A stretch of DNA of 53,914 nucleotides from a virus (Duplodnaviria; Caudoviricetes). The notes below the pieces were generated by a model. The model saw only the letters and a program-made list of their open reading frames with translations, did no database searches and had not been told where the DNA came from. Location: IMG/VR virus record IMGVR_UViG_3300036791_001299, positions 1 through 53,914 of that record; one strand, written 5' to 3'. This document shows, in pieces, positions 1,548 through 43,709 of this stretch. The position numbers were made by a program, and so were the translations under genes. Position 1 is the stretch's first letter, and each line of letters opens with the position of its first letter.

Positions 1548-2168
1548 TTACGCTAACGTCCGGGCGTGGCTATTGACATAGGCATCAATTAAGTCGACAC
1601 AGTTCCATATGCCATGCTCAAAGTTTTTCAGGGCGAAGTAGACCACCTCGGTTCCGTTACACGTCGTCGACGTGTTAAGGCTGGTCTCTAATGCGGCCAG
1701 CCACTGCGTATAAACGTTATCCGGGCAAGTAAGCCGAGCGACTCGCTGTTCAGCTTTCCAAAGTTTTTGGACCTCCGGGTTGGCTAAGATCCGCGCCGCG
1801 ACATCGTTTTTGTATTCGACAAAAACCAAAAGAACAGGCGTTCCTGTTTCCCGTTCATAGTCTTTGTAGTCACACCATTTCCGGTAATCAATTCCCGTTT
1901 CAACGTCGCCCGTATAGCGTCCTCTGGTGCGGTCGGTTTTTGTTTTGATCTCAGCGGCAATCGAAACCCCTCGCCTTGACAACGTAAAGTCAGGCCGGGG
2001 GATCTTGCCGTGTGCAGTTATCATGGATGGCCCGCGCCCATCCCGGGCCATCGCATCGGCGTTGTTTTCAAAACTGTAGCCGTGACGCCCCAGGAGTTTC
2101 TCAATGGCGTACTCACCCACCGTTCCCAGTAGCCGGTTTTCGTCAAACGTTCGCTGCATTGACTTCAT
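1548..2168 (-). CDS. PD-(D/E)XK nuclease-like protein
   Basis: GE...RPDF...AEIKTK catalytic-like motif. Confidence 0.55.
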   Translation of the reverse strand: MKSMQRTFDENRLLGTVGEYAIEKLLGRHGYSFENNADAMARDGRGPSMITAHGKIPRPDFTLSRRGVSIAAEIKTKTDRTRGRYTGDVETGIDYRKWCDYKDYERETGTPVLLVFVEYKNDVAARILANPEVQKLWKAEQRVARLTCPDNVYTQWLAALETSLNTSTTCNGTEVVYFALKNFEHGIWNCVDLIDAYVNSHARTLA

Positions 2169-3195
2169 GCCCCCATACGCGCCATCCCTCCCTTGGCTGG
2201 CGCGCGAAGATGTCTATCTTTCCGCTGGGAGGGGTAGGACAAAGACTTTCAACCAACGCATAAAACTGATCCGGTTTACGTGAGTGGTCGAGGACGTCCG
2301 CGACTAATGCCGTGCTTTGAGCCTTCAATGTGATAACGGGTTTGCCGCGACTCGCAAATAAACAATGCTCGGTTTGCCCGCGCAGCCAGTCACCCAACCC
2401 GATGCGGTTTTTCACCCATGTCAACGTTGTGCGGTATTTAAACCCCCACGCCTCCAAAACATTAAAACCTTCTTTGAGGAAGGCGTTGGTCGTCCATAGC
2501 CATAGGACTGCATCATCGGCGGCGAGGTCTTGAATAGGCAAGGCTTCGATGTCAGCCAGAGCCATCCCGGCGTAGTCCGGATACCCTCGCGCATCATTGA
2601 CCGTTGGCCGCCGCAACGCATAAGGCCATGGGGGATCTGCCACAATGACACGAAATGGCCCCTCTGGTAGTGCTGCAGGCTCGGCTTTGATCTCTTCGGC
2701 CTGTTCATCCCGCCGCGCGAATTTGGCCGACGTCCGCAAGCCTGACGTCGTCAGCTCGTGGGACTCCTTTTCTTTGCCCTCGGCTATATAGGCCTCGAAG
2801 ACTTCTTCCGGCACAGCAGCGATCTGCTGCCAGCGGGAAGACTGCATCGGTTCGACGCCGTAGTCAGCCAAAGTTTTCCCCGAAGTAACATTGTGTGATT
2901 TCGGGGAATTGCCGACACGCAGGTTATCTTCGCGTCTTACCAACTCGCCGTTCATCTGCATTCCGACGATCATCTGGCCCGCGCGGCGCTCTGCTCGTAG
3001 CCGGATCTCAGCCGCATATTTGGCAGCGTCATGAGCATGGAGAGCGGCCTGGAAGTAATGCTGAGCGGACTTCGCCGCCGCGCGGATATTCAACACGTCG
3101 GACAGTGTCCTGGCTTCCTTTAGCAGGACCTCCGCGCGCCCGCCTAGGAATGAAAGTGCGGTGTCCTCTTTCGTTTGCTCGCTATTTTTTCTCAT
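2143..3195 (-). CDS. MT-A70 family N6-adenine DNA methyltransferase
   Basis: VIVADPPW, LWLWTTN, WGFKY, WVK, GQTEHCLFA, HSRKPD, DIFAR motifs; likely start MRKNSEQ at 3195. Confidence 0.9.
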   Translation of the reverse strand: MRKNSEQTKEDTALSFLGGRAEVLLKEARTLSDVLNIRAAAKSAQHYFQAALHAHDAAKYAAEIRLRAERRAGQMIVGMQMNGELVRREDNLRVGNSPKSHNVTSGKTLADYGVEPMQSSRWQQIAAVPEEVFEAYIAEGKEKESHELTTSGLRTSAKFARRDEQAEEIKAEPAALPEGPFRVIVADPPWPYALRRPTVNDARGYPDYAGMALADIEALPIQDLAADDAVLWLWTTNAFLKEGFNVLEAWGFKYRTTLTWVKNRIGLGDWLRGQTEHCLFASRGKPVITLKAQSTALVADVLDHSRKPDQFYALVESLCPTPPSGKIDIFARQPREGWRVWGHEVNAANV

Positions 3196-3284
3196 GAGAT
3201 TCCTACTTGTGCCATTGGCACCCACACCGAACCTTGCCTTGCCACACCTAGCCCGACCGTGCCGAGCCCTACCGCGCCCATCTC

Positions 3285-3974
3285 TCATGAAATCCGCACG
3301 TGATGTCCGCGCTCGGCCAGTGTCGCTCCCGGCACGCCCGTGAGCCCGCTGTCGCCGCAGCTGGCGCAGGGTGCATCTGGCTGTTTAAACCTGCCTCCCT
3401 GGCAGGCGAGACACGGCTGTGCTAAAGACTCGCGGACCAGACGGGTGTCGACTATTCGCTCCGCACCCCTGATGGCTGGCGATCCCAGCAATTCGACCAT
3501 CCGTAAATACTCGTCGTACCCGACCTCGATCCGGTACCGAAAAAATTCGCCGGGCAGGAGCTGCTCGTTGACGTCGATCCGTTGCTCTCCGCCATTCGCC
3601 CAGAGCGAGATGGTGGCGCTGCGGCCTTCGAGCCGACGCAATCCGCGCTTTGGTATGGGCAGCAGTTCGAGCACTCGGGCGAGATAGCCGCGCAGTCGTT
3701 CACGCGCGTTCTGGAGGCGCGCTTTGCGCCTGCGGAGACGCTGTTCTTCTTCCTCGGCGAGCTTGACCTGCGACTCCAGATACCGGACCATGTGCGCGGC
3801 GGCGTCCACGCGCTCGGGGATGCGCTCGCCGAGATACTCCGCGATCTCGCGGTCGACATCCGAGGTGTCTTCCTGGCTGTCAATCATTTCCATCTGTAGC
3901 GTGACCAGCTGCGCGAGATCACCAGCCAGCGAGTAGAGTGCCAGCGGTTGTGGTTTATCCTCGGCAGGTGTCAT
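3285..3974 (-). CDS. Siphovirus Gp157-like protein with C-terminal CxxC motifs
   Basis: LYSLA N-terminus, coiled coil EEQRLRRRKARLQN, C-terminal VPGATL...HVRI; adjacent to bet. Confidence 0.7.
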   Translation of the reverse strand: MTPAEDKPQPLALYSLAGDLAQLVTLQMEMIDSQEDTSDVDREIAEYLGERIPERVDAAAHMVRYLESQVKLAEEEEQRLRRRKARLQNARERLRGYLARVLELLPIPKRGLRRLEGRSATISLWANGGEQRIDVNEQLLPGEFFRYRIEVGYDEYLRMVELLGSPAIRGAERIVDTRLVRESLAQPCLACQGGRFKQPDAPCASCGDSGLTGVPGATLAERGHHVRIS

Positions 3975-4918
3975 TGCTGCTCTCCTGAGCGATCCCATAC
4001 TTCCCATTCGTCTGCGGCGGGTGTGGCGGGTGTCTCTGGCACCGGCGCGGCGGGTTCCGGTGCCGGAGCGGCGGCGGCAACGCCAGCCGCCTTCATCTCG
4101 TTGTAAATCTGGCGGGCCAATTCCCGGCTGCGAATCTGATTTGAATGCTTGAGCCCACGGGCCGCGAGAACCTTGTAATAAAGCTCTTCGCCTATCTCTG
4201 ACTTAAGTGCCGCGAAGGCATCCAGCATCACCTTGTAGGCATTCTTCTCCGGCTGCGCGGGGGGTGTGACTAAAGGACCCGGTTGCATCAAGGGCGCGCC
4301 TCCGTCGACGTCCTGGCGGTGCATTTCCTCGGGAACATACATGCCGCCGCACTCGTCGGGGAAGGCCTTGCGCAGAGCACCCGCCTCAGCACATTTGATT
4401 AATTGGTTAGCGGGCATCCTTTTCCACATGGGGACCAAGTCAAAGCCGCCTTCTTTGCGTTTGTACCTGGGCGCGTATTCCTTGAACACGGCAATGGAAT
4501 AAAGCGGAGCCTGAAAGTCCTTGCGGTAGACTCCGACGCGGGCGGCTGCGGGCGGAGTGTCAGCCAGCCAGACTGGCAGCCATCGACCGCTGGCGTCGCA
4601 CCATTCCGGCGGAGTCTGGCCCGCGTATTTGCCACTGCGCTCGGCTTGCAGCCGGAAACCGTCAATGCCGGTTTGAATGGTCATGACATACTTGCCAGCC
4701 TCCTGGTCGTAGCGTTTGATGCAATAGATTTGTTTGGCGAACGGGTCAAGCCCTTTGTGCTTGCAAACCTCAATAAACAGCGAGAATTCGTCGTCGGTGG
4801 TATCCTTGGCGATGGTTTGCTTGAGCAGGTCGAGCTGGTCGCGATTGGGATTGAAACCACGGGGAAGGGTCTCAGCCTTCGGCGTTTCGATAATTTCAGT
4901 TCCAGGTGTCGGTGTCAT
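3971..4918 (-). CDS. bet: Phage recombination protein Bet/RecT (single-strand annealing)
   Basis: GLDPFAKQIY, IQTGIDGFRLQAERSGKYAG, WKRMPANQLIKCAEAGALRKAFP, GMYVPEEM. Confidence 0.92.
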   Translation of the reverse strand: MTPTPGTEIIETPKAETLPRGFNPNRDQLDLLKQTIAKDTTDDEFSLFIEVCKHKGLDPFAKQIYCIKRYDQEAGKYVMTIQTGIDGFRLQAERSGKYAGQTPPEWCDASGRWLPVWLADTPPAAARVGVYRKDFQAPLYSIAVFKEYAPRYKRKEGGFDLVPMWKRMPANQLIKCAEAGALRKAFPDECGGMYVPEEMHRQDVDGGAPLMQPGPLVTPPAQPEKNAYKVMLDAFAALKSEIGEELYYKVLAARGLKHSNQIRSRELARQIYNEMKAAGVAAAAPAPEPAAPVPETPATPAADEWEVWDRSGEQQ

Positions 4919-4933
4919 TGTCGTATTCCTCGG

Positions 4934-5389
4934 TTAAAATTGCTCAGTAGGTTTCAATGCCTGCTCAGCGGCTTGGTAGCTGAGACTGGTAGCTGAGACC
5001 AGAGCCATGCGCATAGCGATGGTCATGGCCAGACATTGCTCCACGTTTAAATTCCACTGCCGCACCATAATCTCGACGCGGCCATCGCGCACGTAGAGAG
5101 TGGCGGGAATCCAGGTCATGCCTTCCATCGGCGGTTGCGAGCAGAAGAATTCGATGCGCGTCAATTTGCCGTTCTGCGTCTCCGTAGGCTCGATACGGCA
5201 GAGCACCCGCTTCGCGTCTTTCAACTCGGTCTCGTGCTGCCGGTCGAGGTCGAAGGCGTCGATTACCGAATGGCATTGCTCGCACACCGCGTAGTCCTGA
5301 GAGCTGGGACCCGTTTCAGAGTCGTAGTCGAGGCGTGTCAGCATGCGGAATTCGGACGGCTGGCCGCAGGACGGGCAATTGAGTGTCAT
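4934..5389 (-). CDS. Hypothetical zinc-ribbon protein; C-terminus encoded by a CRISPR repeat copy
   Basis: CPSCG...CEQC; 3' end overlaps the solitary repeat. Confidence 0.6.
   Translation of the reverse strand: MTLNCPSCGQPSEFRMLTRLDYDSETGPSSQDYAVCEQCHSVIDAFDLDRQHETELKDAKRVLCRIEPTETQNGKLTRIEFFCSQPPMEGMTWIPATLYVRDGRVEIMVRQWNLNVEQCLAMTIAMRMALVSATSLSYQAAEQALKPTEQF
4951..4999 (+). repeat. Solitary CRISPR repeat plus 13-nt tandem duplication of its 3' end
   Basis: GTTTCAATGCCTGCTCAGCGGCTTGGTAGCTGAGAC (4951-4986) then TGGTAGCTGAGAC; 4 mismatches to the array consensus. Confidence 0.9.
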
Positions 5390-5592
5390 TTGGACGCCTT
5401 CACCTTTCCGGAGCGTTGGGCCTGCAGCCACGCCATGGCATCCGCGCGAACAAGCCAGACGCGCCCGTGAATTCTTTTAACTGGCAGTTCGCCGTCCGCG
5501 ATCAAATGCCGGACCAGCCTTGGTCCAAGCCCGGCCATGCGCGCAAATACAGCAGTCGCTATAAAAAGAGGGTCGTTCTGTTTTTGAGGCAT
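5386..5592 (-). CDS. Excisionase-like/HTH_17 DNA-binding protein
   Basis: FARMAGLGPRLVRHLIADGELPVKRIHGRVWLVR. Confidence 0.7.
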   Translation of the reverse strand: MPQKQNDPLFIATAVFARMAGLGPRLVRHLIADGELPVKRIHGRVWLVRADAMAWLQAQRSGKVKASK

Positions 5593-5668
5593 AGTTGTCA
5601 CCAGCACACCTTGGTGGCCTTCGCATTCTTTGTGTTATACTTGGCCGACGAGTGCGTCGTGTAACTTC

Positions 5669-5686
5669 GTAGCATTATGATGCTAC
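5669..5686. promoter_or_regulatory. Palindromic operator candidate in the divergent control region
   Basis: GTAGCAT-TATG-ATGCTAC; related sites at 26671, 26694, 29360, 33352. Confidence 0.6.
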
Positions 5687-5736
5687 CACCAACTTACTCG
5701 GTCAAGAGTTTTTTTAAGAGAGGCGGAACGTATTGT

Positions 5737-6213
5737 ATGAACGGGAACACACCAGAAGAAAACGAATTATTAGTGGATGCGGAAACCGTGCGCACCAGCA
5801 TCTACCTGCCGCGGGAACTCCACCGGCAACTAAAGATGCGGCTTCTCGATATGGCCATGGGCACCCGTATGAACTCGTTGATCGTCGAGGCTATCGATCA
5901 ATACCTAAACCGGCAGCCAGCTCGCCGAAAAAATATTAACTCCACTTTCACAGAATCACATCAAGAGTCGGTCCAAACTCTGGTGGAGATGCTGAACAGC
6001 AATTCTCCTGAAGTGGTGTCGGCTTTTCAGACACTACTGAGCGCCGCCTGCGATTTGATTGAATTGAAAAGGACCGCTGAGAATGACAAAGCCATCAACG
6101 AGGCCGAAACAACCATTCGCTCAGCAGACGCAATACTTGCAGATGCTGAAGACGTTATTCGAGAAAATGAGCCAGTGCGCCAACACCGGCCAAAAACTCG
6201 TTCTGTTGCTTGA
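5737..6213 (+). CDS. Ribbon-helix-helix (Arc/CopG-like) regulator, putative repressor
   Basis: VRTSIYLPRELHRQLK...MNSLIVEAIDQYL; divergent from the early operon. Confidence 0.7.
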   Translation: MNGNTPEENELLVDAETVRTSIYLPRELHRQLKMRLLDMAMGTRMNSLIVEAIDQYLNRQPARRKNINSTFTESHQESVQTLVEMLNSNSPEVVSAFQTLLSAACDLIELKRTAENDKAINEAETTIRSADAILADAEDVIRENEPVRQHRPKTRSVA

Positions 6214-6312
6214 GAGTCAAATCGAGCCAGACGATACCGAATTGCCCCTGCCGATTCCCATCAAACCGGAGAAAGCCCCGCCGCATCTGAAGTACGGTAC
6301 GGCGGGTTGACC

Positions 6313-6663
6313 TCAGTTTCTGCTGCTCTCGAAAAACTTCCGCGCCCGCGCATTCTCGGCCTGTAGCCGTGCAATCTCACGCTCTGCCTCTTCCCATTGC
6401 TCCGGAGTGTATTTAGTCGCGCCGTCCTCATAGCGGAACTGGCGTGAATGGCAGATGCCGCACCAGGGATCGATCTGTTTATTACCGATCATCCGCTCGG
6501 TGATTTTACGAAGATACCCGGGTGCGTTTTGCGGAGTCATAACGCGGGAGTCCCGGCCATTGCCCTGAGCTGCGGTGATGTGAGGAATATAGGCAAGGCC
6601 TAAAATGCAGTGCCGCTGCGGACAGAGACACTGCACAATGTGAATCTTTGGTAGTACGTGCAT
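6313..6663 (-). CDS. Hypothetical Cys-motif protein
   Basis: CLCPQRHC...WCGICHS. Confidence 0.5.
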   Translation of the reverse strand: MHVLPKIHIVQCLCPQRHCILGLAYIPHITAAQGNGRDSRVMTPQNAPGYLRKITERMIGNKQIDPWCGICHSRQFRYEDGATKYTPEQWEEAEREIARLQAENARARKFFESSRN

Positions 6664-6719
6664 TATGTGAAATTTACTCCAATGGGGTGCATTATATACG
6701 CTCATTGGAGGAAGAAACA

Positions 6720-21767: not shown

Positions 21768-22910
21768 TTATTGATGCGGCTGCGGCGGCTGTTGCGGCGG
21801 ATGCGGTGGTGCCGGTGGCGTGTGCGGGGGAGTCGTAGGCTTGCCACTTTTGGCTTCCTTCGCCGCCTTGGCCTCTTTCGCGCCAGCGCTCAGCTGGCCA
21901 ATGCCCGCGATACCGCATTGCGCAGTCACGATCAGCGGACCGCCTTGCACCGGGTCAAGTTTGGTGGCGACCGTCACCGTAACGCTCACGATGCCGTCCT
22001 GCTCGCCGTTGACCACCGTCTCATACTGGATCGACGGATAGTTAAACGTCACCGTATGGGTGGCGTCAAAGGTGGCGGTCAGCGAGGCCTTCGCCGTGCC
22101 CGCAGGAGGCGGAGTAATCAGCATCTGATACTCTTGCGAGCTTTTCAGCAGACGTGCCGTGAAAGTGAACGTCGAGGCGCGCGCGCCCATCTCGAGACGA
22201 CCGCGAATGGCCGCGCCGTTCTGCATGCCACTGCCCGGGAAAAAGCCGGGGCCCACCAGCAGATTATTTTTCCAGCCGATGGTGCCGGACAGAATAGTGG
22301 CCGCGGCAACGTAGTCGACACCGTTGATCGTCAGCGCCATACTGGCCGATAACAGATAGTGCTCGGACACCGGCGCAGGGACTGTGACACCGGAGGGTGT
22401 GACCATCTTGCCGCTGCCCACCCAGTTGACGGTCATGCTCCCGGACTGACGGCCAGGGCCGTAGTTGAAGGTGTACTCGACATCTTCAATGGCGCATCCC
22501 ACAAACTCGTTATCCAGAGCGGTCGCACCGGCTTCGCACACCTGCTCGACCACCGAGAAATACGGCAACTCGAGACCATCGGTGCAGGGGTCGATAGGCT
22601 TGATCGTGTACGTCCCGGCGGCTTCCGTCACTTTGCCCAAAGCGAAGGCGAACGCCCAGGTGGCGAATTCCGCCGAGGCATATTTGTCGATGCGCGCCAG
22701 CGGGTTGTAGCTCACCGGGTAGACGCCATCCACCGAGATAAATTCAGTCCCCTTGCCGATCTCCGCCGCGTCGTTCTCGGTCATGAATCCGGACGGTGCC
22801 AGCTCGGGGTTATTCTGCCGGAAGCGCAAAAACGTCTGAGAGGGCGTGTGGATATCCGCCTGCGCGTCCTGCCCCAGGCCGAGGATCTTATTCTGTATAC
22901 GAGCGGCCAC
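21768..22910 (-). CDS. Major tail (tube) protein with Pro/Gln/Lys-rich C-terminal extension
   Basis: 380 aa beta-rich protein upstream of the chaperone and tape measure genes. Confidence 0.7.
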   Translation of the reverse strand: MAARIQNKILGLGQDAQADIHTPSQTFLRFRQNNPELAPSGFMTENDAAEIGKGTEFISVDGVYPVSYNPLARIDKYASAEFATWAFAFALGKVTEAAGTYTIKPIDPCTDGLELPYFSVVEQVCEAGATALDNEFVGCAIEDVEYTFNYGPGRQSGSMTVNWVGSGKMVTPSGVTVPAPVSEHYLLSASMALTINGVDYVAAATILSGTIGWKNNLLVGPGFFPGSGMQNGAAIRGRLEMGARASTFTFTARLLKSSQEYQMLITPPPAGTAKASLTATFDATHTVTFNYPSIQYETVVNGEQDGIVSVTVTVATKLDPVQGGPLIVTAQCGIAGIGQLSAGAKEAKAAKEAKSGKPTTPPHTPPAPPHPPQQPPQPHQ

Positions 22911-23442
22911 TTTTTAGTCCCCCTTCTTTTCCCGGTCCGATACACATGAAGTTAACGCCGTCGGGACCGGCGTCACCCATCTCGTCAAACAAAAGCAATA
23001 GCGACCAGAAATCCTGGCCCAGTTCATCGTTGGCGCGCGGCTCGGTCAGCGAAAACAGCCACAGATTGTGGTTGCAGAGATCCACATAGCGGATGTTGGG
23101 CGCTGTCTCCGGCACCGTGATCGGATAATTGACCGCCATTGCCAGCAGATCCGGCGCACTCAACGCGCCGCCGTTAACCTTCGCATTCCTGGCGCGCACA
23201 TATAACGCCACGCGATGCTTCCACATCGTCTGCCCGTCGAAGTTGCCCATCATGATGTCGTTGTAGGCGATCAGCATGCTCGGCTCGCGCATCTGGCCAA
23301 GCGCGCGCATGAGGGAATTTTCTTCGCCGGAATAGGAGTAATGCGCGGTGATGAACTGGCTGCCGCCCAGTTCAGCCGTCAACTGAGGGATGGACTGCAG
23401 CGATGCGAGCACCGCGTTGAGGACTGTGGTCGAAGTGAGCAT
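22888..23442 (-). CDS. Putative tail terminator / head-tail completion protein
   Basis: Position and size. Confidence 0.5.
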   Translation of the reverse strand: MLTSTTVLNAVLASLQSIPQLTAELGGSQFITAHYSYSGEENSLMRALGQMREPSMLIAYNDIMMGNFDGQTMWKHRVALYVRARNAKVNGGALSAPDLLAMAVNYPITVPETAPNIRYVDLCNHNLWLFSLTEPRANDELGQDFWSLLLLFDEMGDAGPDGVNFMCIGPGKEGGLKSGRSYTE

Positions 23443-23451
23443 TTTGGGCCA

Positions 23452-23796
23452 CTACGAAAGCGCTCTTAACCGGATGTGCAGACCGCCGCACCGGTCGCCG
23501 TCCGACTGCACGACGTTGTACACGACACCGTTGTAACTCGCGGTGTCGCCGCGCACCGCCATAACGCCAGCTGACGCCGGAATGAAGAGCATCAGCATGG
23601 CCGTACCCGTCAGGCTGCCGGGTACATAATCCTCTTCCATCGCCGGATTCTTCACGACACAGGAAACCGGGATGTCCGGATCCCCGTTGGTGGGATGGAG
23701 AATCAGCTGAAGAGTTCCCGCGTCTGGGTCAACTTTTTGAAACGTGGAAACGACGATATTGTCCATCTGGCCGACCAGGGAATCGAAGTCCATCAC
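23452..23796 (-). CDS. Head-tail joining protein (gpFII-like)
   Basis: RGDTASYNGVVYNVVQSDGDRCGGLHIRLR pattern; position. Confidence 0.6.
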   Translation of the reverse strand: MMDFDSLVGQMDNIVVSTFQKVDPDAGTLQLILHPTNGDPDIPVSCVVKNPAMEEDYVPGSLTGTAMLMLFIPASAGVMAVRGDTASYNGVVYNVVQSDGDRCGGLHIRLRALS

Positions 23797-24185
23797 TTCC
23801 TCCCCGGCGGCTTTTGCCGGAACCCGCGTACCGTCTCTTCGACCGGCACATCCACCTGCGGCAGATCCGCGACAATCCGCGATGCCACCGGAACAACCGG
23901 CTCGACCAGCGGCTCGACGGCAAGAGCCGCAGTGGCTTCGCGTGCTTTCTGCTCGCGAAGATACTGGCGTGTATTGGGCAACGGCTCGACCGGCTCCAGA
24001 CGCCGCATTTCGTAAAACTGGCGCAAGCGTTCACGGCGAATCTGCAGGGGAAACACCTCCGGGTTAATCGTCTGGCCGACCGGAATCGTGACCTCGCCGA
24101 GCACCAATGGACGCAGCGCTACCTTGAGCGCCGGAATGCCGGTGCGGGTGAGATCACGCCATGGAGTCAGCTCGCGAAACAACAT
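23793..24185 (-). CDS. Hypothetical head-module protein
   Basis: Likely start MLFREL at 24185; packed in the operon. Confidence 0.5.
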   Translation of the reverse strand: MLFRELTPWRDLTRTGIPALKVALRPLVLGEVTIPVGQTINPEVFPLQIRRERLRQFYEMRRLEPVEPLPNTRQYLREQKAREATAALAVEPLVEPVVPVASRIVADLPQVDVPVEETVRGFRQKPPGRK

Positions 24186-24189
24186 GGGT

Positions 24190-24480
24190 TTACCGGGGCT
24201 TGGGCTTTTCCACCGCAGCAGGGTTATGATGCTCGCCGGTGTGGGTCTGGGACGCAGTATGCTGCTCACTGCGCGCCGCCTTATCAACTCCGGCGATAAA
24301 CTCCTCGCACACCGCGCGGATTTCAGGCGCGCGAAAGTCATTCCGCAGATAGTAGGAGACCGCTTCGCGGATAATCTGGTCCTTCTCCGACTGCGACTTT
24401 TCCGGCTTTTTCTCTTCGGGTTGGGTGTGCTGTACCGGTTCGTCCTTGGGCATTTTCTTTTTCCTCTTCGTCGTCGCCAT
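24190..24480 (-). CDS. Hypothetical charged protein
   Basis: TAATG coupling to the capsid gene stop. Confidence 0.5.
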   Translation of the reverse strand: MATTKRKKKMPKDEPVQHTQPEEKKPEKSQSEKDQIIREAVSYYLRNDFRAPEIRAVCEEFIAGVDKAARSEQHTASQTHTGEHHNPAAVEKPKPR

Positions 24481-25559
24481 TAAATGCAGTTGGTGAGAAA
24501 CCCGCCCATGTCGGCGCTGACCACTTTATGGACGTAAGCCGACTCAATTTCCACATGCGTCGAGCGATCCTGCTGCAGGTAGTAGCTCGAGATCCGTTCG
24601 CCCGCCGGAGTCGCGCCGAAGTACCCGTTCCAGGTGAAGGTATAGCCGCATGCGGCAGTCATGATGCCGGGCGCGGGAGGCGTGTAGCCGATCCAGACAT
24701 TGGGTCCGGCGACAAACTGGTTAGCTTCACCGGCGTTCACGCCGACGTTGTAGCCGGGCGGAACGTAAGTGGCACCACTGTCTGGACCGGCCAGCTCGGG
24801 GGCGCTATTGTAAATCGCGTCGGAGACAAACACTTTGTCCATCTCGAAAATCGCGGCCAGCGTATCGAGGATGACCTGCGCGGGACGCGGCGCGGTCTGG
24901 CCGTATTTCACGCGGTCGACGAATTCCGGATGGTCGAGCAACACGTCGAAAACAGGGCGTCCGATCACCATGCGGTTGGCGCGGTAGGTGCTCGTGAGCT
25001 GCACGATCTGTTTCAGCTTGCGCACGTCCTGGATGGGCGTCGAGGCGGCGTTTGACCAGAGCATGAAGTTGTAACTCGATGCGCTGGACGGAGGCGGTGC
25101 TGTCGGATACGCGGGGCTGGCCGCAGCCGCGCCGGTCCACAGATTGGTCCACACGCCCGGCTGGAAGAAGGTGGTCATCCAGGCCATCTCGCGGTTGATC
25201 AGCGATTGCATGGTCAACAGGCGCGTGGCTTCGAGGTCGAGATTGAAGATCGAGTCGGCGTTGCCGCGGGTCTGATCGTCAATGGGTTTGCCGAGGGCCC
25301 AGACATCGCACAGATACGAGGCATTCGTGTCGGTGCGGTAGCCGATGTTTTTTACCATCGTCCCGGGCGCGCGCTTCTGCATCTGGTTGCGGTTGAAATC
25401 GGCGCGCGAATAGGTGAGATACCGGTCGGAGATCTTGGGGACCGGCACGATGGGGAACACATCCCGCGCGATGAAGTTGGTCTGGTCCTGCGAAAACATG
25501 ACGCTCATGTCGGTGAGTAGCGCGTTTACGTGGACGTCGGATAGTGTCGGCTGAGCCAT
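24480..25559 (-). CDS. Major capsid protein
   Basis: 359 aa; LTDMSV...FIARDVFPIVPV N-terminus; follows the protease and decoration genes. Confidence 0.88.
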   Translation of the reverse strand: MAQPTLSDVHVNALLTDMSVMFSQDQTNFIARDVFPIVPVPKISDRYLTYSRADFNRNQMQKRAPGTMVKNIGYRTDTNASYLCDVWALGKPIDDQTRGNADSIFNLDLEATRLLTMQSLINREMAWMTTFFQPGVWTNLWTGAAAASPAYPTAPPPSSASSYNFMLWSNAASTPIQDVRKLKQIVQLTSTYRANRMVIGRPVFDVLLDHPEFVDRVKYGQTAPRPAQVILDTLAAIFEMDKVFVSDAIYNSAPELAGPDSGATYVPPGYNVGVNAGEANQFVAGPNVWIGYTPPAPGIMTAACGYTFTWNGYFGATPAGERISSYYLQQDRSTHVEIESAYVHKVVSADMGGFLTNCI

Positions 25560-27670: not shown

Positions 27671-29344
27671 TTACGGCTTGGGCGGCTCGCTGCTATCGTC
27701 CGTTTTCGCGGCGTCCTGCGACTCCGGTTCACCCTCTTCCTCGGCTTGCGGCGACGCCTCTTTTCCGACCAGAATCTTGCGCGGATCGATGTCGTAAACC
27801 AGCTCGAGCGCGTCGGTCCGGGCATTGTCCGCGACCTGCTGCTGGTCGATAGTCTCCGCATCCTCGCCGAGTTCCGCGCATACGGTCTGGCGCGACGTGA
27901 ACCCGCAACGGACCATGGTCTGCTTGGCCTCGATGTCCTTCGCCGGGTCGATCCACTGCCACGCCGACGGCATCCACGCAACCTCCAGGTATGGCTCCGG
28001 CTCATCCGCGTAACCCGGGAGGCTGAGGCGGCCACTCAGCACCGCTTCATCCATCCACCAGCGCAACAGCGGCTGGCAGAGTTGAGTGATCAGCACGTTG
28101 TAGATAAACTGCTCGGCCTTGCGGTGGGCGTCCTGCACGCCCGCGCGAATGGAGGAGAGGTTAACGCCACGCAGATCGCCGGTCACCTGCTCGTAGGTCG
28201 CGCCGATGGCCGCCGCAAACTGATGCAGCATGATCGACATGAAACTGCTGAGATCGTTGTTTTGCGGCAGCGACGGGAACTTGATTTCCTCGCCCGGGTA
28301 CAAGTAATTAAACGAGCCGGGCTCCACCTCGGTGAACCCGACAGGCTGGGGCGGAACATAGCCACCAACGGGAGCCGCCGTGCCGCCCGTCCAGGCCGTG
28401 GGTAAAACGTCGGTCTCCGGCACGGTCTTTGAGATGAAGCCCGCAAACATCGACTGCACCTCTTTGGCGACTACCGTGGCATCGGTATACTTGCCCAGCT
28501 CATGCAACAGCACCAGCACGCTCGCCAGATGCGGCTGTCCACGCAGCAAACCGGCGCGAAACGGCTTGTAGGCGTGGATCATCCGGTCGGACGGCACCCG
28601 CACGAATTGCAAGGCGGACGATGTGAAGAACATAGTCTCGCCGGGGTGCTCGGCATACATGTGAAAGGCCGCCAGCCGTCCCTGCGCGTCGAATTCCTTG
28701 CCGGTGCGCACCATGGAGCCCTGCGCGGTGGGCGCAAGACCCGCCGTCGCCGTCAGATTCAGCCAGATGGGACATTGCTCGGCCTCGATCAGCTGAAATT
28801 GCACCGGCACCCGCAGCGGCTGCTTCGCATTGGGATTGGCGGACCAGCCGCGGGGCCGGATGTGCCGCCGCACGAAGACCTCGCCGCCTTCGAAGATCTC
28901 GCGCGCCGCGAGCGCCTGCAGGCCGAAGAAATCGCTGAGACCGTGATAGTCGATGGTCTTGGTCAGCATCGACAGGCGAAACTCGCGCTCGATCTCGAGT
29001 TTGAGCTTTTCGTCCTTGAGCGACCACTTCGGCTTGATGCCGTTGCCGACCACCTGACTCTCGAAGTTATCTACCGCCGACGCGGCCAGCGGGTTGTTGC
29101 GGACCTCATCGTGACACCGCGCGAGCATCAGGTCCCGCGTACCCCATAGCGATGTTGTAGGACCCAGTCGCGACGGCTGCCAGCCGCCTAAACGGCGACC
29201 GGTGCCGGTAGCTTCGTAGGGCGCGCCGGAACCGCTATAGCCGGAGTATTCGGAGGGATATTGCGCGCGCCGGTCGAGCACCGCCGTGCCGGGTGTCGAC
29301 CCTGAGAGGCCGTGGAGCCGGGCCAGACTGCGTTCCGATGCCAT
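27671..29344 (-). CDS. Portal protein, lambda family
   Basis: RNNPLA...VGNGI, QLIEAEQ, RGQPHLA, YEQVTGDL..VN.SS.RAG, WIDPAKD. Confidence 0.93.
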   Translation of the reverse strand: MASERSLARLHGLSGSTPGTAVLDRRAQYPSEYSGYSGSGAPYEATGTGRRLGGWQPSRLGPTTSLWGTRDLMLARCHDEVRNNPLAASAVDNFESQVVGNGIKPKWSLKDEKLKLEIEREFRLSMLTKTIDYHGLSDFFGLQALAAREIFEGGEVFVRRHIRPRGWSANPNAKQPLRVPVQFQLIEAEQCPIWLNLTATAGLAPTAQGSMVRTGKEFDAQGRLAAFHMYAEHPGETMFFTSSALQFVRVPSDRMIHAYKPFRAGLLRGQPHLASVLVLLHELGKYTDATVVAKEVQSMFAGFISKTVPETDVLPTAWTGGTAAPVGGYVPPQPVGFTEVEPGSFNYLYPGEEIKFPSLPQNNDLSSFMSIMLHQFAAAIGATYEQVTGDLRGVNLSSIRAGVQDAHRKAEQFIYNVLITQLCQPLLRWWMDEAVLSGRLSLPGYADEPEPYLEVAWMPSAWQWIDPAKDIEAKQTMVRCGFTSRQTVCAELGEDAETIDQQQVADNARTDALELVYDIDPRKILVGKEASPQAEEEGEPESQDAAKTDDSSEPPKP

Positions 29345-36148: not shown

Positions 36149-38206
36149 TTACCGGCGGCGGAATCCGCCCCGCTGCGCGCCCAGACCCGGGTAGGCTGGC
36201 TGCGCAGTCACCGGTGCCGTCCAGGCGGCTTGAGTGGGCTGTGGCACCGGTGCCGGACGTGGCGGCGCTGCGCCTTCGATGGCAATAGCCGCCTCGAAAT
36301 GACGCCAGTGGTCTTCCCCAAACCGGTCCGCGCCCACAATCGAATAGGCCGCCCGGTTGTACACCGCGAGATCGATGGGCTCATTGCGCGGCGCGCGCTT
36401 CTCGTAGACGACGTCGCCGTTGGGCTTGACGATCTTCACCTCGGAGCATAAGCCTTCGAAGTACGTCATGTCATACATCGGCCAGTGATAACAACCGGTC
36501 ACCGGCGTATCGTCCACCGTAGGCACCGCGTGCCGCATCAAATCAAACAATTCAGCCTTGCAGCAGTTCACCCCGACACCCACAATGCGCGTCCCCTGCC
36601 GCTTGCGCGCCGCATCTTCCTTCGAAATGCTGGCAATGACCCGCAGCTGGTCCGGCGTACCCTTGATAGGCACCACCGTGCGCGCCGCGATCAACTTAAT
36701 ACCTTGCGGTCCGTAATGCAGCTGATGCCCCCGCCGCGTAAACTCGTATACCGGCTTCGGGTTTTTGCCGGTGTCGATGGTCATGCAAAGGATCGGCAGA
36801 CTCTTACCCGAGTTGTGCGCCCACTCGCGTCCCAATAACTCATACAGCTGGTCCCACAATTCCCGCGCGCTCACCGGCAACTCCTGGCCATTCTCGCTGA
36901 ACGCTTGCAGCACCCAGTAGCCCATCGACCAGTTTTCGCGGTTTCTACCCCAGGCCTTCACTTCAACCTCGAGACGCGCCGGATGCTCCTGGACGTCAAC
37001 CGCCGCCGTCAGGAACAGACCCCGCTGCGGCACCACCGCAGTATCCCCGAACGGATAAGCCTCCCGCCGCGCAAACAACAGATCCTTCTCCGGCGCTTCG
37101 CCTTCTTCCACCCATTCCTCGGCGAGCACCGTATTGATAAACGTTTTGAGACTCTGCCGGTCGTCTTTGGCATTCAGAAACTGCTGCGAAATGGACGCCG
37201 CCGACTTCCAGCTCGGTGGCACATACAAGTGGTTCAGCCAGAATCCAGCCGTGCGATTGCCCGCCTGCGGACGATCCGCGCGCCACTCGACATAGTGATC
37301 CACCGCATCCCAGCGCTCCCGCTCCGTCCACGGCTTATCGCAACTGATGCAGTAATAGCGCGCCGTCGCCGCCTGCAGCTCCCGCGCCACGGCGGTAGAC
37401 CACTTGACGTGATACCCGTCCCGGTCGCGGAATCGCAACACCTGCATGGTGCCGCAATGCGGACACGGCACGTAGGGGCGCCGCTGGTCGGACAACGCAA
37501 ATGCCCTGCCGATCCGGCTGCGCCCGGCCACCGTCGGACTGCACGCCAGGATACGCTTGCGGCGCGTCCCGAAGGTCATGGCGCGTTCCCACGCAAGGTC
37601 GATAGGATCACCTTCTCCCTGACGCTCCTGGCTGCCGCCGACATCCTGGTCGTACTTGTCGATCTCATCGCACACCAGATACCGGATGGTGTGCTGCGCC
37701 AGATCCACCGGCGTGCGCGCACTGATGATCAGCAGGTTGCCGCCCGGGAAGGTCTTGCTCTGGATGGTATTCGAGCCATCGTGGATGCCGTCCAGCACCT
37801 TATTGCGCAGGATCTGGCAATCCCGCACCATGGGCATCAACCGGCGCTTCGAGAAATCGCGCGCGGCGTCTTTTTTGGGCTCGACCAATAAGATGGGCCC
37901 CGGCTCCTCGGCGATCCAATACGCAATCGCCAGCATGATCGCGAGACTCTTGATCACCTGGGTGGACGACATGATCACCACGGTCTCGATGGTGTCGTCC
38001 GTTATGGCGTCGAGAATGCCCCGCTGCCAGCCGTACAACCGCAAGGGACCGGTCGACGAGCTGTACTCCGGCGACAGCACCACGTTGGCTTCCGACCATT
38101 GCGAAAGCGGCACCCGGGGACGCACCCGGAAGATCTCAGAGTGCAAGCTCTGAAATACCGGCGGCGGCCAGTCCCAGCCTGGAACTAAGAAAGATGGCGT
38201 TTCCAT
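36149..38206 (-). CDS. terL: Terminase large subunit (lambda gpA family)
   Basis: variant Walker A SSTQVIKS, LVCDEIDKY, CSPT, CPHCG, AAVDVQ, IDTG, RNEPIDL. Confidence 0.95.
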   Translation of the reverse strand: METPSFLVPGWDWPPPVFQSLHSEIFRVRPRVPLSQWSEANVVLSPEYSSSTGPLRLYGWQRGILDAITDDTIETVVIMSSTQVIKSLAIMLAIAYWIAEEPGPILLVEPKKDAARDFSKRRLMPMVRDCQILRNKVLDGIHDGSNTIQSKTFPGGNLLIISARTPVDLAQHTIRYLVCDEIDKYDQDVGGSQERQGEGDPIDLAWERAMTFGTRRKRILACSPTVAGRSRIGRAFALSDQRRPYVPCPHCGTMQVLRFRDRDGYHVKWSTAVARELQAATARYYCISCDKPWTERERWDAVDHYVEWRADRPQAGNRTAGFWLNHLYVPPSWKSAASISQQFLNAKDDRQSLKTFINTVLAEEWVEEGEAPEKDLLFARREAYPFGDTAVVPQRGLFLTAAVDVQEHPARLEVEVKAWGRNRENWSMGYWVLQAFSENGQELPVSARELWDQLYELLGREWAHNSGKSLPILCMTIDTGKNPKPVYEFTRRGHQLHYGPQGIKLIAARTVVPIKGTPDQLRVIASISKEDAARKRQGTRIVGVGVNCCKAELFDLMRHAVPTVDDTPVTGCYHWPMYDMTYFEGLCSEVKIVKPNGDVVYEKRAPRNEPIDLAVYNRAAYSIVGADRFGEDHWRHFEAAIAIEGAAPPRPAPVPQPTQAAWTAPVTAQPAYPGLGAQRGGFRRR

Positions 38207-38351: not shown

Positions 38352-38618
38352 GTCTCACCTATCAAGCCGGTGAACAGGCATTGCGTAGCTTTTCTCCATA
38401 ATAATTTCTCCGTAGGTCTCACCAACCAAGCCGGTGAACAGGCATTGCGACTTTAGTGCATGATAGTCTCAGTTACCAGGCCACCAAGCAGGCATTGCGT
38501 CTCCCTCATCCTCGTCCCGGCTACCAAAGCCGCCGAGCAGGCATTGCTTGGTTCCGGCCCCATCTCGACTAGAGCCTTCTGCGTTTCAGCTACCAAGCCG
38601 CTGAACAGGCATTGTGGA
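38352..38618 (-). CRISPR. Distal array segment: 5 variant repeats
   Basis: Repeats at 38352, 38416, 38466, 38514, 38583; spacers about 28, 14, 12, 32 nt. Confidence 0.8.
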
Positions 38619-39263
38619 CTCCTCGGCAATCGCGCGCTGCGCCAATACTAACAGGTCCACGCTGTCAGGCAGCGCCGCGGCCCGTACTGCCACATATGCT
38701 GCCTCCGCCACCCTCCTCATTACCGTAATCTCTATTTGCTGGCACGCCGCGCAGGCCGCACACGTGGCGCACCACGCTGCTTTGGCCGCTCCCCTTGCCT
38801 CCTTCGAGCGATGCTGAACTGCCCGGACTGATGCCGCCATCCCGGCTGCGACTGCCTTTTCGTGAGAACGATCCGTACCGTTTAGCCACCCATACGCCCA
38901 GCCCACAAAGGACGGATCGCGGTCCACCGCCATCGCGCACATAACCGCAAACCGCACCCTCGCGCTTGCCGCAACCTCCGGCATCTCGATGCGCCGGATG
39001 GTGGTCAGCGACCTACACCCACACTTGAGTTGTCCGTCACGCAGTCCTATTTCGCCCTCAGCCTCCCAGAGCAGTATGTTTCGGGGATCAACGTATATTG
39101 CCGGGATCAATAAAGCCGCCAGGAGCGGATGCTCGTGAGCATGTATCCACCCGTCCGTAAAAAGCTCCTTGCCGGTGCCGGTCGCGGCGTGGGTGACATT
39201 CTCCCCCCACTCGATCCCGTCTCCCGACTGGTCATTGGCGTCAGCCACTTTATAGAGGGTCAT
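38586..39263 (-). CDS. Phage hypothetical protein embedded in the CRISPR array
   Basis: 225 aa, AAGG RBS, flanked by repeats on both sides; stop codon lies inside a repeat. Confidence 0.75.
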   Translation of the reverse strand: MTLYKVADANDQSGDGIEWGENVTHAATGTGKELFTDGWIHAHEHPLLAALLIPAIYVDPRNILLWEAEGEIGLRDGQLKCGCRSLTTIRRIEMPEVAASARVRFAVMCAMAVDRDPSFVGWAYGWLNGTDRSHEKAVAAGMAASVRAVQHRSKEARGAAKAAWCATCAACAACQQIEITVMRRVAEAAYVAVRAAALPDSVDLLVLAQRAIAEESTMPVQRLGS

Positions 39264-39325
39264 TTGGTTTTTACCTTACCTTTCCGGGTAGACTAATGCG
39301 CACGGGCTTACTGTGCTCGGCGCTG

Positions 39326-39362
39326 GTCGGCAATGCCTGTTCAGTGGCTTGGTTACTGAGGC
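39326..39362 (+). repeat. Inverted CRISPR repeat copy
   Basis: GTCGGCAATGCCTGTTCAGTGGCTTGGTTACTGAGGC, opposite orientation to the array. Confidence 0.85.
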
Positions 39363-39380
39363 CGTCAACACACATCGCGC

Positions 39381-41379
39381 GTCCCGGCTACCAAGCCGCC
39401 GGGCAGGCACCTCGGATTACTTCACGGATGTCTCAGCTACTAGGCCGCCGAGCAGGCGTTGCGACAGACCATAAGATCTTCGCGTCACACCAACTAAGCC
39501 GGTGAACAGGCATTGCAACGCGGAATGCGACGTGCGTTGGCGTCCACCCGAAGAGTCGCGTCTCAGCTACCAAGCCGCTGAGCAGGCACCGCGACTATCG
39601 CTAAAGGCTAATGTCCCAGCTACCAAGCCGCTGAACAGGCGTTGCAACGCAGCTTGCTGACCCAGATCAAGACCTCCAGATCCATCCCGTCTCAGTAACT
39701 AAGCCACCGAGCAGGCGTTGCGACCCCATGTCTCTATCAACGGACGTCACGACAAACAAGTCTCAGCTACCAAGCCGCTGAACAGGCGTTGCGACGCACG
39801 GCGGCGGCGATCCGCACCAGGAAGTCCACGTCTCAGCTACCAAGCCACCGAGCAGGCGTTGCGACACCACGAAAGGATCGGGAGCAATGACGTCTCAGTA
39901 ACCAAGCCACTGAGCAGGCGTTGCGACGGAGGGTGGCGTGATCGCTCATGAAACCAGTATGCGCTGTCTCAGCTACCAAGCCACTGAGCAGGCGTTGCGA
40001 CGCTGCATCCTTCGGTTGTTCCCATCGCACCTGCCACGTCTCAGCTACCAAGCCACTGAGCAGGCGTTGCGACGATTTAAACCCTGGTATATGCTCATGC
40101 ATAATAGTCGGGTCTCAGCTACCAAGCCACTGAGCAGGCGTTGCGACTGCCAGCCATTTTTCGAGCGCCGCCGTTGGGACGCGTCTCAGCTACCAAGCCA
40201 CTGAGCAGGCGTTGCGACGATTTAAACCCTGGTATATGCTCATGCATAATAGTCGGGTCTCAGCTACCAAGCCACTGAGCAGGCGTTGCGACGCTGTTAA
40301 AGTAGCGCGGTGCCGTTTGTGCGGTTAGTTGTCTCAGTAACCAAGCCACTGAGCAGGCGTTGCGACCACGTCGACAGATCTCTTTCACGGCGATGACGTC
40401 CTGTCTCAGCTACCAAGCCACTGAGCAGGCGTTGCGACGGGGTCGAGTATGACGCCGATATTCAGCCTCGAGCCGTTGTCTCAGCTACCAAGCCACTGAG
40501 CAGGCGTTGCGACGTTCGAAAACTGGCCGGAGATCGCCACCACTGACCCTGTCTCAGCTACCAAGCCACTGAGCAGGCGTTGCGACAGGAGCCGCCCTTG
40601 CAGGCGGATGATCTGGCGCTTGTCTCAGCTACCAAGCCACTGAGCAGGCGTTGCGACACTGCGATCCGGTGCGACCGGCGGGTATCAGCAGTAGTCTCAG
40701 CTACCAAGCCACTGAGCAGGCGTTGCGACGTTGTATTTCGGACAATACTATCCGTTGGAATTTGTTGTCTCAGCTACCAAGCCACTGAGCAGGCGTTGCG
40801 ACATCCGTGGTCCGCGTACTGCGGGTGCCGACATCGTCGTCTCAGCTACCAAGCCACTGAGCAGGCGTTGCGACGTCCAGGTCAAAATCATCAAGCACGG
40901 ACGGTTTAGCGTCTCAGCTACCAAGCCACTGAGCAGGCGTTGCGACCTAAACCCCGGAAAAAGTTCGAAGCACCCTACCCTGTCTCAGCTACCAAGCCAC
41001 TGAGCAGGCGTTGCGACGCGGTGACATCGCCGAGCGCCGCGCCCCAGATGTAGAGTCTCAGCTACCAAGCCACTGAGCAGGCGTTGCGACACGGAAACTG
41101 GTCGGGCTGGAGGAAATCGAGCAGTAGGGGTCTCAGCTACCAAGCCACTGAGCAGGCGTTGCGACCGCGGTCCGGCCTCCGGTCTCCTCTTTCTCGGAGC
41201 GTCTCAGCTACCAAGCCACTGAGCAGGCGTTGCGACAACCCGGACCTGCTCGCTCGATACCGGAACCGTCTTGTCTCAGCTACCAAGCCACTGAGCAGGC
41301 GTTGCGACCATTCGGCAGGGGTAGATACCCCCCAACTACCTACGTCTCAGCTACCAAGCCACTGAGCAGGCGTTGCGAC
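39381..41379 (-). CRISPR. CRISPR array, 29 repeats of 36 nt (21 near-identical, 8 variant)
   Basis: Minus-strand repeat GTCGCAACGCCTGCTCAGTGGCTTGGTAGCTGAGAC; mostly 34-40 nt spacers; divergence increases away from the cas gene. Confidence 0.98.
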
Positions 41380-43191: not shown

Positions 43192-43198
43192 GCTTAAA

Positions 43199-43228
43199 AT
43201 TGTATTTAAAGGTGGGCCAAATTGCGAA
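43199..43228 (-). promoter_or_regulatory. Candidate leaderless promoter for cas12m (TTCGCA-N18-TACAAT-N7-ATG)
   Basis: No SD before ATG 43191; -10 box 7 nt upstream. Confidence 0.5.
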
Positions 43229-43250
43229 AACAACGGCGGGTGGTTTTGTT

Positions 43251-43709
43251 TTATCGTCGCGGCTCGAAAACGATAACCTGGACGGACTCCATCGAGCCAA
43301 GCGCCTGCTCTATTTCCGGACGCACATCACCCCAGCTCAGCCCGCCATTGCCGCATCCCAGCGCAGGTATTGCTAGGGACCGAATATTTTCCTCTTCAAT
43401 CACACGGCGAAGATCCCGCAGTCCGTCGACAATCCATTTCAGCTGGGAGGGATGCCGCCAGTGCTCCTTCGTGGGAAAGTTGATCACCCACTGCGGACCG
43501 TGAAGGTCGTTGGTCTTCGTAACAAACATGCGCCCGATTCTGACTTCATTGCGGTTGCACGCTAATACGTAGGCGCGATAATTCTTCGGATAAGCATATC
43601 TGAATTTGAACGCAATCCCCGCGCCCATCGTGCCGACCGTGTTCACGGTATTGACCAGCGCTTCCACTGGCTCTCTCAAGAGATCCCCGTCTACCCGAAA
43701 TGTGATCAT
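43251..43709 (-). CDS. DarG-like macrodomain (ADP-ribosyl hydrolase)
   Basis: GDLL...ALVNTVNTVGTMGAGIA..F, INFPTKEHWR, SLAIPALGCGNGGLSW. Confidence 0.88.
   Translation of the reverse strand: MITFRVDGDLLREPVEALVNTVNTVGTMGAGIAFKFRYAYPKNYRAYVLACNRNEVRIGRMFVTKTNDLHGPQWVINFPTKEHWRHPSQLKWIVDGLRDLRRVIEEENIRSLAIPALGCGNGGLSWGDVRPEIEQALGSMESVQVIVFEPRR

Follow-up and report, generated by a model that had tools for sequence, protein, structure and literature searches.

A solitary copy of a Cas12m array repeat among the early genes of a phage, a candidate source of a crRNA-like RNA

Introduction

What is a single repeat of a CRISPR array doing among the early genes of a phage, far from the array itself? 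The question is raised by the virus record IMGVR_UViG_3300036791_001299 (Duplodnaviria; Caudoviricetes), which is analysed here over its full 53,914 bases (the window) and is 76% complete. A preliminary description, made from the sequence alone, had noted at 4951-4986 a full 36-nt repeat with a perfect CTCAGC/GCTGAG stem, about 33 kb from the array and antisense to the early operon, and had suggested that it encodes a CRISPR RNA (crRNA)-like transcript. We refer to this element as solitary repeat unit 1 (SRU1). SRU1 is a true copy, outside the array, of the repeat found in the type V-M (Cas12m) array that this phage carries, and it belongs to a set of dispersed units whose stem has been kept by compensatory change. 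The coordinates of the features under discussion are collected in Table 1.

Results

SRU1 is an off-array copy of the array repeat

The + strand sequence of SRU1 (GTTTCAATGCCTGCTCAGCGGCTTGGTAGCTGAGAC) departs from the array repeat at four positions, namely 3, 4, 8 and 19. The change at position 19 converts the closing G-U pair of the stem into G-C, and it is this change that makes the CTCAGC/GCTGAG stem perfect. Every base that is invariant in the repeat family is present (G9, C10, C11, G13, G20, G21, C22, T24, T27, G32 and C36). The 3' 28 bases are those of array unit 39560-39595, and the last 24 bases fit the repeat pattern, which has 29 matches in the window and none in 100 shuffles. A covariance model, R1, was built from an alignment (A1) of 21 distinct units and searched with filters off. 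In this search SRU1 scores 57.3 bits (E 3.3e-13), equal to the canonical repeats, although SRU1 is in the training set and training units match by construction. With an identity of 32/36 and this score, the complete repeat and its stem are as first described.

R1 detects 38 units in the window at E <= 1.5e-7, the next match being at E 0.64. Thirty-five of them lie within 38352-41379, one in inverted orientation (39327-39362), and three lie far from the array, at 4951 (SRU1), 49319 (SRU2) and 51104 (SRU3). All three are on the + strand and antisense to genes; SRU1 opposes a minus-strand open reading frame (ORF) that precedes recT, in line with its reported orientation against the early operon. 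The nearest other unit is that at 38352, 33.4 kb off, in agreement with the distance given earlier, and cas12m is 36 kb off. Because R1 detects no further unit outside 38352-41379, 49319-49354 and 51104-51140, SRU1 is solitary, and it takes part in no regular repeat-spacer-repeat spacing. The word solitary, used in the preliminary description, holds in the sense that no array surrounds SRU1, but not in the sense of unique, since SRU2 and SRU3 are further far-off + strand units.

The sequence TGGTAGCTGAGAC occurs 2.0 times, at 100% identity, over 4974-4999. This exact 13-base tandem duplication accounts for the earlier observation that the would-be spacer opens with the repeat's own 3' 13 nt. 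Misassembly had been named as something that would refute the description of the site; a separately assembled contig of the only public run listed for the stretch, a DNA run and not an RNA run, shows 0 differences across 4600-5500. That run may be the window's source, and therefore an assembler slip is excluded but the confirmation is not independent.

The effector gene next to the array is a cas12m. Its product (ORF 41383-43233) matches the Cas12m structure 23vw_A in PDB with E 9.7e-89 over residues 36-567, and a Cas12m2 structure with E 1.2e-23; it has a TNB zinc ribbon (Pfam Cas12f1-like_TNB, 3.9e-12) and two CxxC pairs. The motifs LDLGW, VVVEEF and DQDLNAA in this ORF suggest, by their shapes, a putative RuvC triad of the D-E-D type. 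The first array repeat begins 3 bases past the cas12m stop, the array being fused to the 3' end of the gene. With about 600 aa and an adjacent array, the protein has the features of a type V-M effector.

Table 1. Positions of the repeat units and of the other features discussed (window coordinates unless a contig is named)
Feature	Position	Strand	Remarks
SRU1, solitary repeat unit	4951-4986	+	36 bases; 32/36 vs array repeat; perfect 6-bp stem
Second TGGTAGCTGAGAC copy	4987-4999	+	first 13 bases of would-be guide; shifts frame of minus-strand ORF
Would-be 18-base SRU1 guide	4987-5004	+	length from published Cas12m crRNAs
Promoter-like GTGTCA-17-TAAAAT	4912-4940	+	9/12; ends 10 bases before SRU1; overlaps recT start and ORF stop
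Zinc-ribbon-like ORF	4934-5431	-	conserved part ends ..MTIAMRMA(L); final ~23 residues come from the antisense of the duplication and SRU1
RecT-family single-strand annealing protein gene (early operon)	3971-4918	-	Pfam 1.8e-30; next gene downstream of ORF 4934-5431
Gam-like gene (early operon)	3285-4007	-	
MT-A70 methyltransferase gene (early operon)	2143-3288	-	
SRU2	49319-49354	+	5 mismatches, one U-G wobble; gives 11-residue tail and TAA stop of ORF 49322-50287
D3b, 228-base module copy	49087-49314	+	94% identical to 47148-47375; contains TTGACA-18-GATACT; ends 4 bases before SRU2
SRU3	51104-51140	+	strongly diverged; 35.4 bits, E 1.5e-7; 1-base loop insertion
CRISPR array	39430-41379	-	20 perfect repeats; others increasingly degenerate toward 39430
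Seven more degenerate units around ORF 38586-39263	38352-39416	six -, one +	+ unit inverted at 39327-39362
cas12m, type V-M effector	41383-43233	-	between the two terminase genes
Large terminase	36149-38206		
Small-terminase-like gene	43706-44248		
Portal, lambda-type	27671-29344		
Bacterial-contig unit	L009:1987-2022	+	
Bacterial-contig unit	L011:2001-2036	-	
Bacterial-contig unit	L008:914-949	+	
Bacterial-contig unit	L010:226-261	+	

The stem is kept by compensatory change

The stem is formed by repeat positions 14-19 with 29-34. Across the 21 distinct units, changes on both sides are found in five of the six pairs and 99.2% of the cells pair, whereas only 22-52% pair in a control in which the 3' partner is slid by 1-3 columns. 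The same holds for the units outside arrays (n=10: three from the window, five from a related phage, G001, and two from bacterial contigs), in which all 60 of 60 cells pair, both-sided changes occur in four of six pairs, and the covariation score is attained by none of 500 shuffles. In SRU3, 7 of the 12 stem positions no longer carry the base of the canonical repeat (counted by eye), and it still retains 6/6 pairs, through two compensatory pairs and two wobbles.

Six cells of the off-array stems are G-U or U-G. These would be A-C mismatches on the opposite strand, and therefore the repeat-sense strand is the constrained one; this is the + strand for SRU2 and SRU3. As SRU1 carries no informative stem substitution, we infer its constraint from its sister units.

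An alternative pairing also stands out in two of the units. The altered 5' bases of SRU1 (GUUUCA, 4951-4956) and of SRU2 (GUCUUA, 49319-49324) are fully complementary to the 3' UGAGAC (4981-4986 and 49349-49354, respectively); this 5'/3' pairing is lacking in SRU3.

Promoter-like sites stand near two of the three units

The candidate promoter described 10 nt before SRU1, GTGTCA-N17-TAAAAT, is present; at 9/12 it is weak when taken alone. SRU2 lies 43 bases past the -10 hexamer of TTGACA-18-GATACT (10/12, 49246-49275). On the + strand, 14 promoter-like sites are called in the window, and such a site ends at most 50 bases upstream of two of the three + strand units, compared with 1.3% of + strand positions. 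In G001 one of the five far-off units has such a site, TTGACA-17-AAGAAT, which stops 4 bases short of it; the share of positions there is 0.6%.

The site before SRU2 is part of a 228-base module, which consists of a minus-strand terminator-like hairpin and the plus-strand TTGACA-18-GATACT. The first copy of the module (47148-47375) leads to the + strand ORF 47528-48565. It is followed by TAGTTGAGAC, a 9/10 match to the repeat's last 10 bases, at the place where the second copy has the full SRU2; a unit may have been deleted here. Each module copy has before it a 20-base tandem repeat of its own, iteron-like in look and not the same in the two cases, at 46669-46825 (7.9 copies) and 48850-49064 (10.6 copies).

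Each + strand unit begins where a conserved protein ends

In all three cases the start of the + strand unit coincides with the point at which the conservation of a minus-strand protein stops. For ORF 49322-50287 there are 622 homologues. In the 16 that were aligned the protein ends ..PREIEVKV or similar (KV/KI/KL); thirteen stop there and three go on with unrelated tails of 5-6 residues, and the tail of the window's protein, GVSATKPLNGH (SRU2 read backwards), is found in 0 of the 16. At the DNA level, the gene in 23 viral relatives ends in TGA (21) or TAA (2) and is followed by different DNA. Homologues of ORF 51039-51500 measure about 121 aa compared with 153, and end 0-15 residues after a KPYY motif. 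SRU3 begins at this point, directly behind the conserved DUF2493/YAcAr domain. For ORF 4934-5389, whose homologues the preliminary description had proposed to compare for the repeat-derived tail, the answer is of the same kind: the best homologue, P0122, with an identity of 59%, follows the ORF as far as ..MTIAMRMA and diverges exactly at the unit, where the duplication and SRU1 begin.

Positions 4-6 of the units read TCA, TTA and CTA in SRU1, SRU2 and SRU3, respectively, which are minus-strand stop codons, in frame only in SRU2. On our reading of the sequences, both other stops would be in frame without SRU1's 13-base duplication and SRU3's 1-base loop insertion. As it stands, the minus-strand ORF 4934-5431 reads through SRU1, and the next gene is of the RecT family, loosely 'bet'. 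The earlier statement that the repeat encodes the C-terminus of the gene upstream of bet is therefore true, but it is incidental, because the ORFs run into inserted units.

A second phage and a few bacterial contigs carry units of the same family

Among the 78 viral loci fetched with the family of ORF 49322, one (L032) carries the same repeat family. It belongs to record G001, of 61,383 bases and 95% complete. This phage has a 642-aa Cas12m-like ORF with a TNB domain beside its terminase gene (region 4067-6686), an eroded array (4067-4747) whose repeats almost all differ from one another, and five units far from it, at 21955, 22036, 23228, 25450 and 50536 (the last spanning 50536-50571). The units from 21955 to 25450 (in locus L091; to 25487) lie among minus-strand early ORFs, which include a SNF2 helicase gene, and are on the same strand as these ORFs. 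Those at 21955 and 22036 are tandem copies just ahead of a ribosome-binding site and start codon. The window and G001 have in common four BLAST segments (1,235 bases), and the positions of the units differ between them. Since nucleotide similarity is thus near zero, the scattered units are a trait of the lineage and not a one-off.

Four metagenome contigs of up to 111 kb contain one copy each of a unit of the family (54-55 bits), in two sequence variants. The unit follows the stop of an HpiC1-like gene by 12 bases and precedes a homoserine dehydrogenase gene by about 290 bases, a bacterial chromosome context, and the 2 kb around it contain no array. Candidate explanations are the relic of a lost locus, a decoy on the host side and a site of recombination. 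We considered whether the unit is an attP/attB core common to the phage and these bacterial copies and rejected this, as identity stops at the repeat edge and the part of the genome at hand has no adjoining integrase.

Close relatives of ORF 4934-5431, cas12m and P0122 were sought among viral contigs and none was found; a word-index search with ORF 4934-5431 returned only itself among 24 candidates. A 17-mer of the repeat has four matches in viral contigs, which were set aside, two being tRNA-like and two unrelated by eye. The repeat pattern has 0 matches in species genomes.

The guides match no flanked target in the window

Published Cas12m crRNAs are described as comprising nearly the whole repeat and about 17-18 guide bases, and the enzymes as binding without cutting (bioRxiv 10.64898/2026.03.26.714355, PMC11013384, PMC10442227). 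On this model, the 18 bases after each unit were taken as its guide, that of SRU1 being UGGUAGCUGAGACCAGAG (17-18 bases). When the orphan guides and the array spacers were compared with the window, no match exceeded the null of 13-16/18, apart from one spacer's duplicate array copy and the SRU1 guide on the repeats. In particular, no pseudo-spacer match to a site in the same genome bordered by a PAM (protospacer-adjacent motif), the mark of the regulatory type, was found.

The duplicate is an identical 38-base spacer used twice in the array (40074-40111 and 40219-40256). As an exact 20-mer it has 0 matches in viral contigs, and so the PAM of this Cas12m cannot be deduced from it. The stop codon of rival genes was tried as a PAM for the SRU2 guide and rejected: the stop is TGA in 21 of 23 relatives, which gives TCA as the reverse complement and not TTN/YTN, and the guide agrees there in no more than 6/18 bases.

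The SRU1 guide behaves differently from the others in one respect. Its first 11 bases are found at 28 sites in the window with at most one mismatch, all of them repeat units, and at two repeat-spacer junctions as many as 16/18 bases agree. The flank of these 28 sites is GGCT in 26 and GGCC in 2, whereas the PAM of the Cas12m enzymes studied is reported as TTN/YTN or another T- and C-rich motif. A guide directed against the repeats themselves, one of the roles proposed at first, is not supported: this flank is not the TTN/YTN of studied Cas12m (this enzyme may differ), and the self-match comes from the 13-base duplication.

Other features of the phage genome

The phage character of the window is shown by its portal, terminase, capsid and RecT genes; a capsid protease and capsid genes are also encoded. 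Directly upstream of cas12m, in the same orientation, is a gene for a macro-domain protein (43251-43709, minus strand; Pfam 2.6e-22), beyond which stands the small-terminase-like gene. ORF 38586-39263, with a weak DUF7666 match, is surrounded by degenerate and irregularly spaced units that keep their stem through compensatory changes, e.g., CCCGGC/GCCGGG and TTCACC/GGTGAG; the inverted unit 39327-39362 is upstream of this ORF. No adaptation genes were seen among the 48 scanned ORFs of the window, and searches of the window found 0 Rfam families and 0 tRNAs.

Discussion

A crRNA-like reading of the units

We argue that the units are, as a class, read as RNA in the repeat sense and recognised by Cas12m; the argument is built on the constraint on the fold, on wobbles that suit one strand only and on the promoter module. 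For SRU1 itself, the reading that we favour is that of an orphan Cas12m crRNA-like RNA, either a decoy or directed against a target outside the contig, and we consider the chances of this being correct to be about even. In that case SRU1 would be transcribed on the + strand from the weak promoter 4912-4940, with a start a few bases before the unit. The transcript would fold into a crRNA handle, to be bound and trimmed by the phage Cas12m, and the product would be an orphan crRNA of about 33 handle bases and 17-18 guide bases. The resulting complex might simply occupy Cas12m without a target, that is, act as a decoy or in dosage control, as in RNA anti-CRISPRs; or it might bind DNA beyond the contig, in a rival phage, in the host or in the missing quarter of the genome. 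It is the lack of a PAM-flanked guide target in the 54 kb at hand that leads to these two options. The crRNA-like + strand RNA proposed in the preliminary description has gained indirect support, from the covariation on the sense strand, from the duplicated promoter module of SRU2 and from the promoter-like sites near two of the three units. Its role may be that of a decoy, of a guide acting in trans or of antisense control over the recombination genes, among which these data do not discriminate.

A decoy would fit the Racr precedent as published (PMC10651486), but it would be odd in a phage that carries the array as well. A guide used in regulation or competition would fit the binding-only mode described for Cas12m (PMC11013384, PMC10442227) and the crlRNA precedent (bioRxiv 10.1101/2024.12.27.630466), with no target found.

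Several observations weigh against a crRNA-like role. SRU1's own stem carries no informative change, and as its 3' 28 bases are those of an array unit it may be no more than a recent copy. The units are not set apart by thermodynamic folding (z-scores from -1.4 to +0.9), and the minimum-energy fold of SRU1 and SRU2 is the alternative pairing of the 5' and 3' ends, which competes with the covarying hairpin. A proposed pseudoknot (5-7:23-25 with 9-11:20-22) is compatible with the data and was rejected for want of covariation, three of its pairs being invariant and three varying on one side only. Regarding promoters, the region 4500-6400 contains 3 promoter-like sites against 1.1 +/- 1.2 in shuffles, so that the site of SRU1 is not above shuffles locally; SRU3 has no promoter-like site; and units and promoters both favour gene junctions, which makes the true enrichment smaller than the raw fractions. 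Regarding targets, an 11-base seed flanked by YTN was found (at most one mismatch) for 0 of 15 orphan guides, in a window that is 76% complete and with a PAM that may not be that of this enzyme, and guides and spacers gave nothing above the null against 92 related loci (797 kb) or against the 61-kb G001. Moreover, the four G001 units in L091 are sense to genes whereas the window units are antisense, and one mechanism may not fit both. Lastly, a decoy seems redundant next to an array of about 30 repeats.

Alternative explanations

The principal rival is that SRU1 has no present function and is an inert scar, left at a module junction by recombination or by ectopic repeat generation, its intact look being due to its young age. 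We regard this as rather unlikely, though it is the alternative that fares best. The phage has its own RecT and Gam-like proteins, for which repeats would be 36-base patches of homology. All three + strand units begin exactly at the end of conserved coding sequence, the homologues of ORFs 49322-50287, 4934-5389 and 51039-51500 end or diverge at the units, and the sites shift between the window and G001. The frame-shifting 13-base duplication looks unconstrained, and the identity of SRU1 with an array unit over its 3' 28 bases also fits a recent origin. What a scar leaves unexplained is the covariation, that is, 60 of 60 paired off-array stem cells with compensatory changes and strand-specific wobbles; it leaves unexplained, too, that SRU3 is fully paired in spite of 7/12 changed stem positions, and that units are associated with promoter-like sites.

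A wider version of the crRNA-like reading, which we consider improbable, would make the phage Cas12m the hub of dispersed orphan guides, promoter-driven or embedded in operons and kept foldable by selection, as a natural CRISPR interference regulon acting on transcription of the phage itself, of a rival or of the host. SRU1 would then be one node, at the junction before the recombination genes.

It is less probable still that what matters is the minus strand or the DNA itself. The anti-repeat in the early messenger RNA might pair with the crRNA precursor, or mark a site of processing or stability before recT, or the unit might be a patch of homology with the arrays of other phages. SRU1 does lie within a transcribed minus-strand operon, between the ORF and recT, its complementarity to the array repeats is 32/36, and positions 4-6 are minus-strand stops in all three units, that of SRU2 being the actual stop of its ORF. 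However, the G-U pairs of SRU2 and SRU3 become A-C mismatches on this strand, and the minus-strand folds of both lose the hairpin. Cas12m is reported to need no trans-activating crRNA (PMC10442227), a homology patch should keep its sequence and not covary, and the stop within the unit is in frame in just one of the three units of this assembly.

For the 13-base self-match, a duplication by slippage is a better reading than a designed guide. The idea that an SRU1 crRNA base-pairs within the 3' part of SRU2 and of the array repeats, so that Cas12m occupies the array, and gene junctions as well, and throttles transcription of crRNA or of the operon, is very unlikely: it draws on the matches at 28 sites, on the 16/18 agreement at two junctions and on the reported action of Cas12m by blocking transcription (PMC10442227, PMC11013384), and it is opposed by a flank with C at position -2 (studied Cas12m use TTN/YTN, and this one may differ), by a pairing of just 13 of about 18 bases at most sites, by the expectation that slippage beside a hairpin yields a perfect short tandem duplication, and by SRU2, SRU3 and the five G001 units, which have no duplication, so that it is not a feature of the class.

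Relation to known systems

Viral solitary repeat units are known; what is new here is their setting, within the virus's own binding-only effector system and scattered through early genes. The closest precedent is that of Racr and viral SRUs (Camara-Wilpert et al. 2023, PMC10651486), described as single repeats in phages, outside arrays, with a promoter-like site just upstream. SRU1 is likewise a solitary repeat in a virus genome, and has its 9/12 site 10 bases before. The Racr small RNA is described as bound by the cognate Cas protein, and by analogy the same would be expected of SRU1. Racr units, in that account, mimic host repeats and are not associated with cas genes, whereas this phage itself encodes both the cognate cas12m and the array; in this the unit departs from Racr. 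Because of this arrangement, a decoy would act on the phage's own system.

CreR/CreA, scaRNA and crlRNA (PMC10120712, bioRxiv 10.1101/2024.12.27.630466) are described as having, like SRU1, a repeat-like handle followed by a pseudo-spacer, with an effector that binds without cutting, which is the native mode of Cas12m. These RNAs are reported to lie in or beside cas operons, whereas SRU1 is 33 kb from the nearest unit of the array region, and their pseudo-spacers partly match a PAM-flanked nearby promoter, whereas none was found for SRU1.

With the type V-M loci of phages and prophages (PMC11013384, PMC10442227, PMC11656645, bioRxiv 10.64898/2026.09.14.751636), as published, the window has in common an effector of about 600 aa, a TNB zinc ribbon and 36-base repeats. 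The D-E-D-type motifs given for MvCas12m, from a phage, match the window's Cas12m, and Cas12m with D-E-D, H-D-D and N-D-D are all reported to fail to cut (PMC11013384). The passages found in the Cas12m literature describe no repeat copies scattered in the genomes of Cas12m carriers.

The mini-arrays with which viruses are described to compete with one another (PMC11656645) are a further parallel: there, too, the CRISPR element in the virus is minimal, and its guide could strike related viruses. The phage genes to whose ends the guides of SRU2 and SRU3 are antisense are widely conserved. Mini-arrays are described with two repeats, whereas SRUs have one, and no guide match was found in the 78 related viral loci or in G001.

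Significance

The roles known for such elements are those of decoys against host CRISPR, for viral solitary repeats, and of regulators beside cas operons, for bacterial ones. The units described here are dispersed, and in two phages of distant relationship compensatory changes have preserved their ability to fold. If they are inert scars, they would single out repeat-mediated recombination as something that drives the shuffling of modules in these phages. If instead they are loaded by Cas12m, they would be natural examples of minimal Cas12m guide cassettes, and they would extend the use that a phage makes of a nuclease-free CRISPR protein beyond array-encoded interference.

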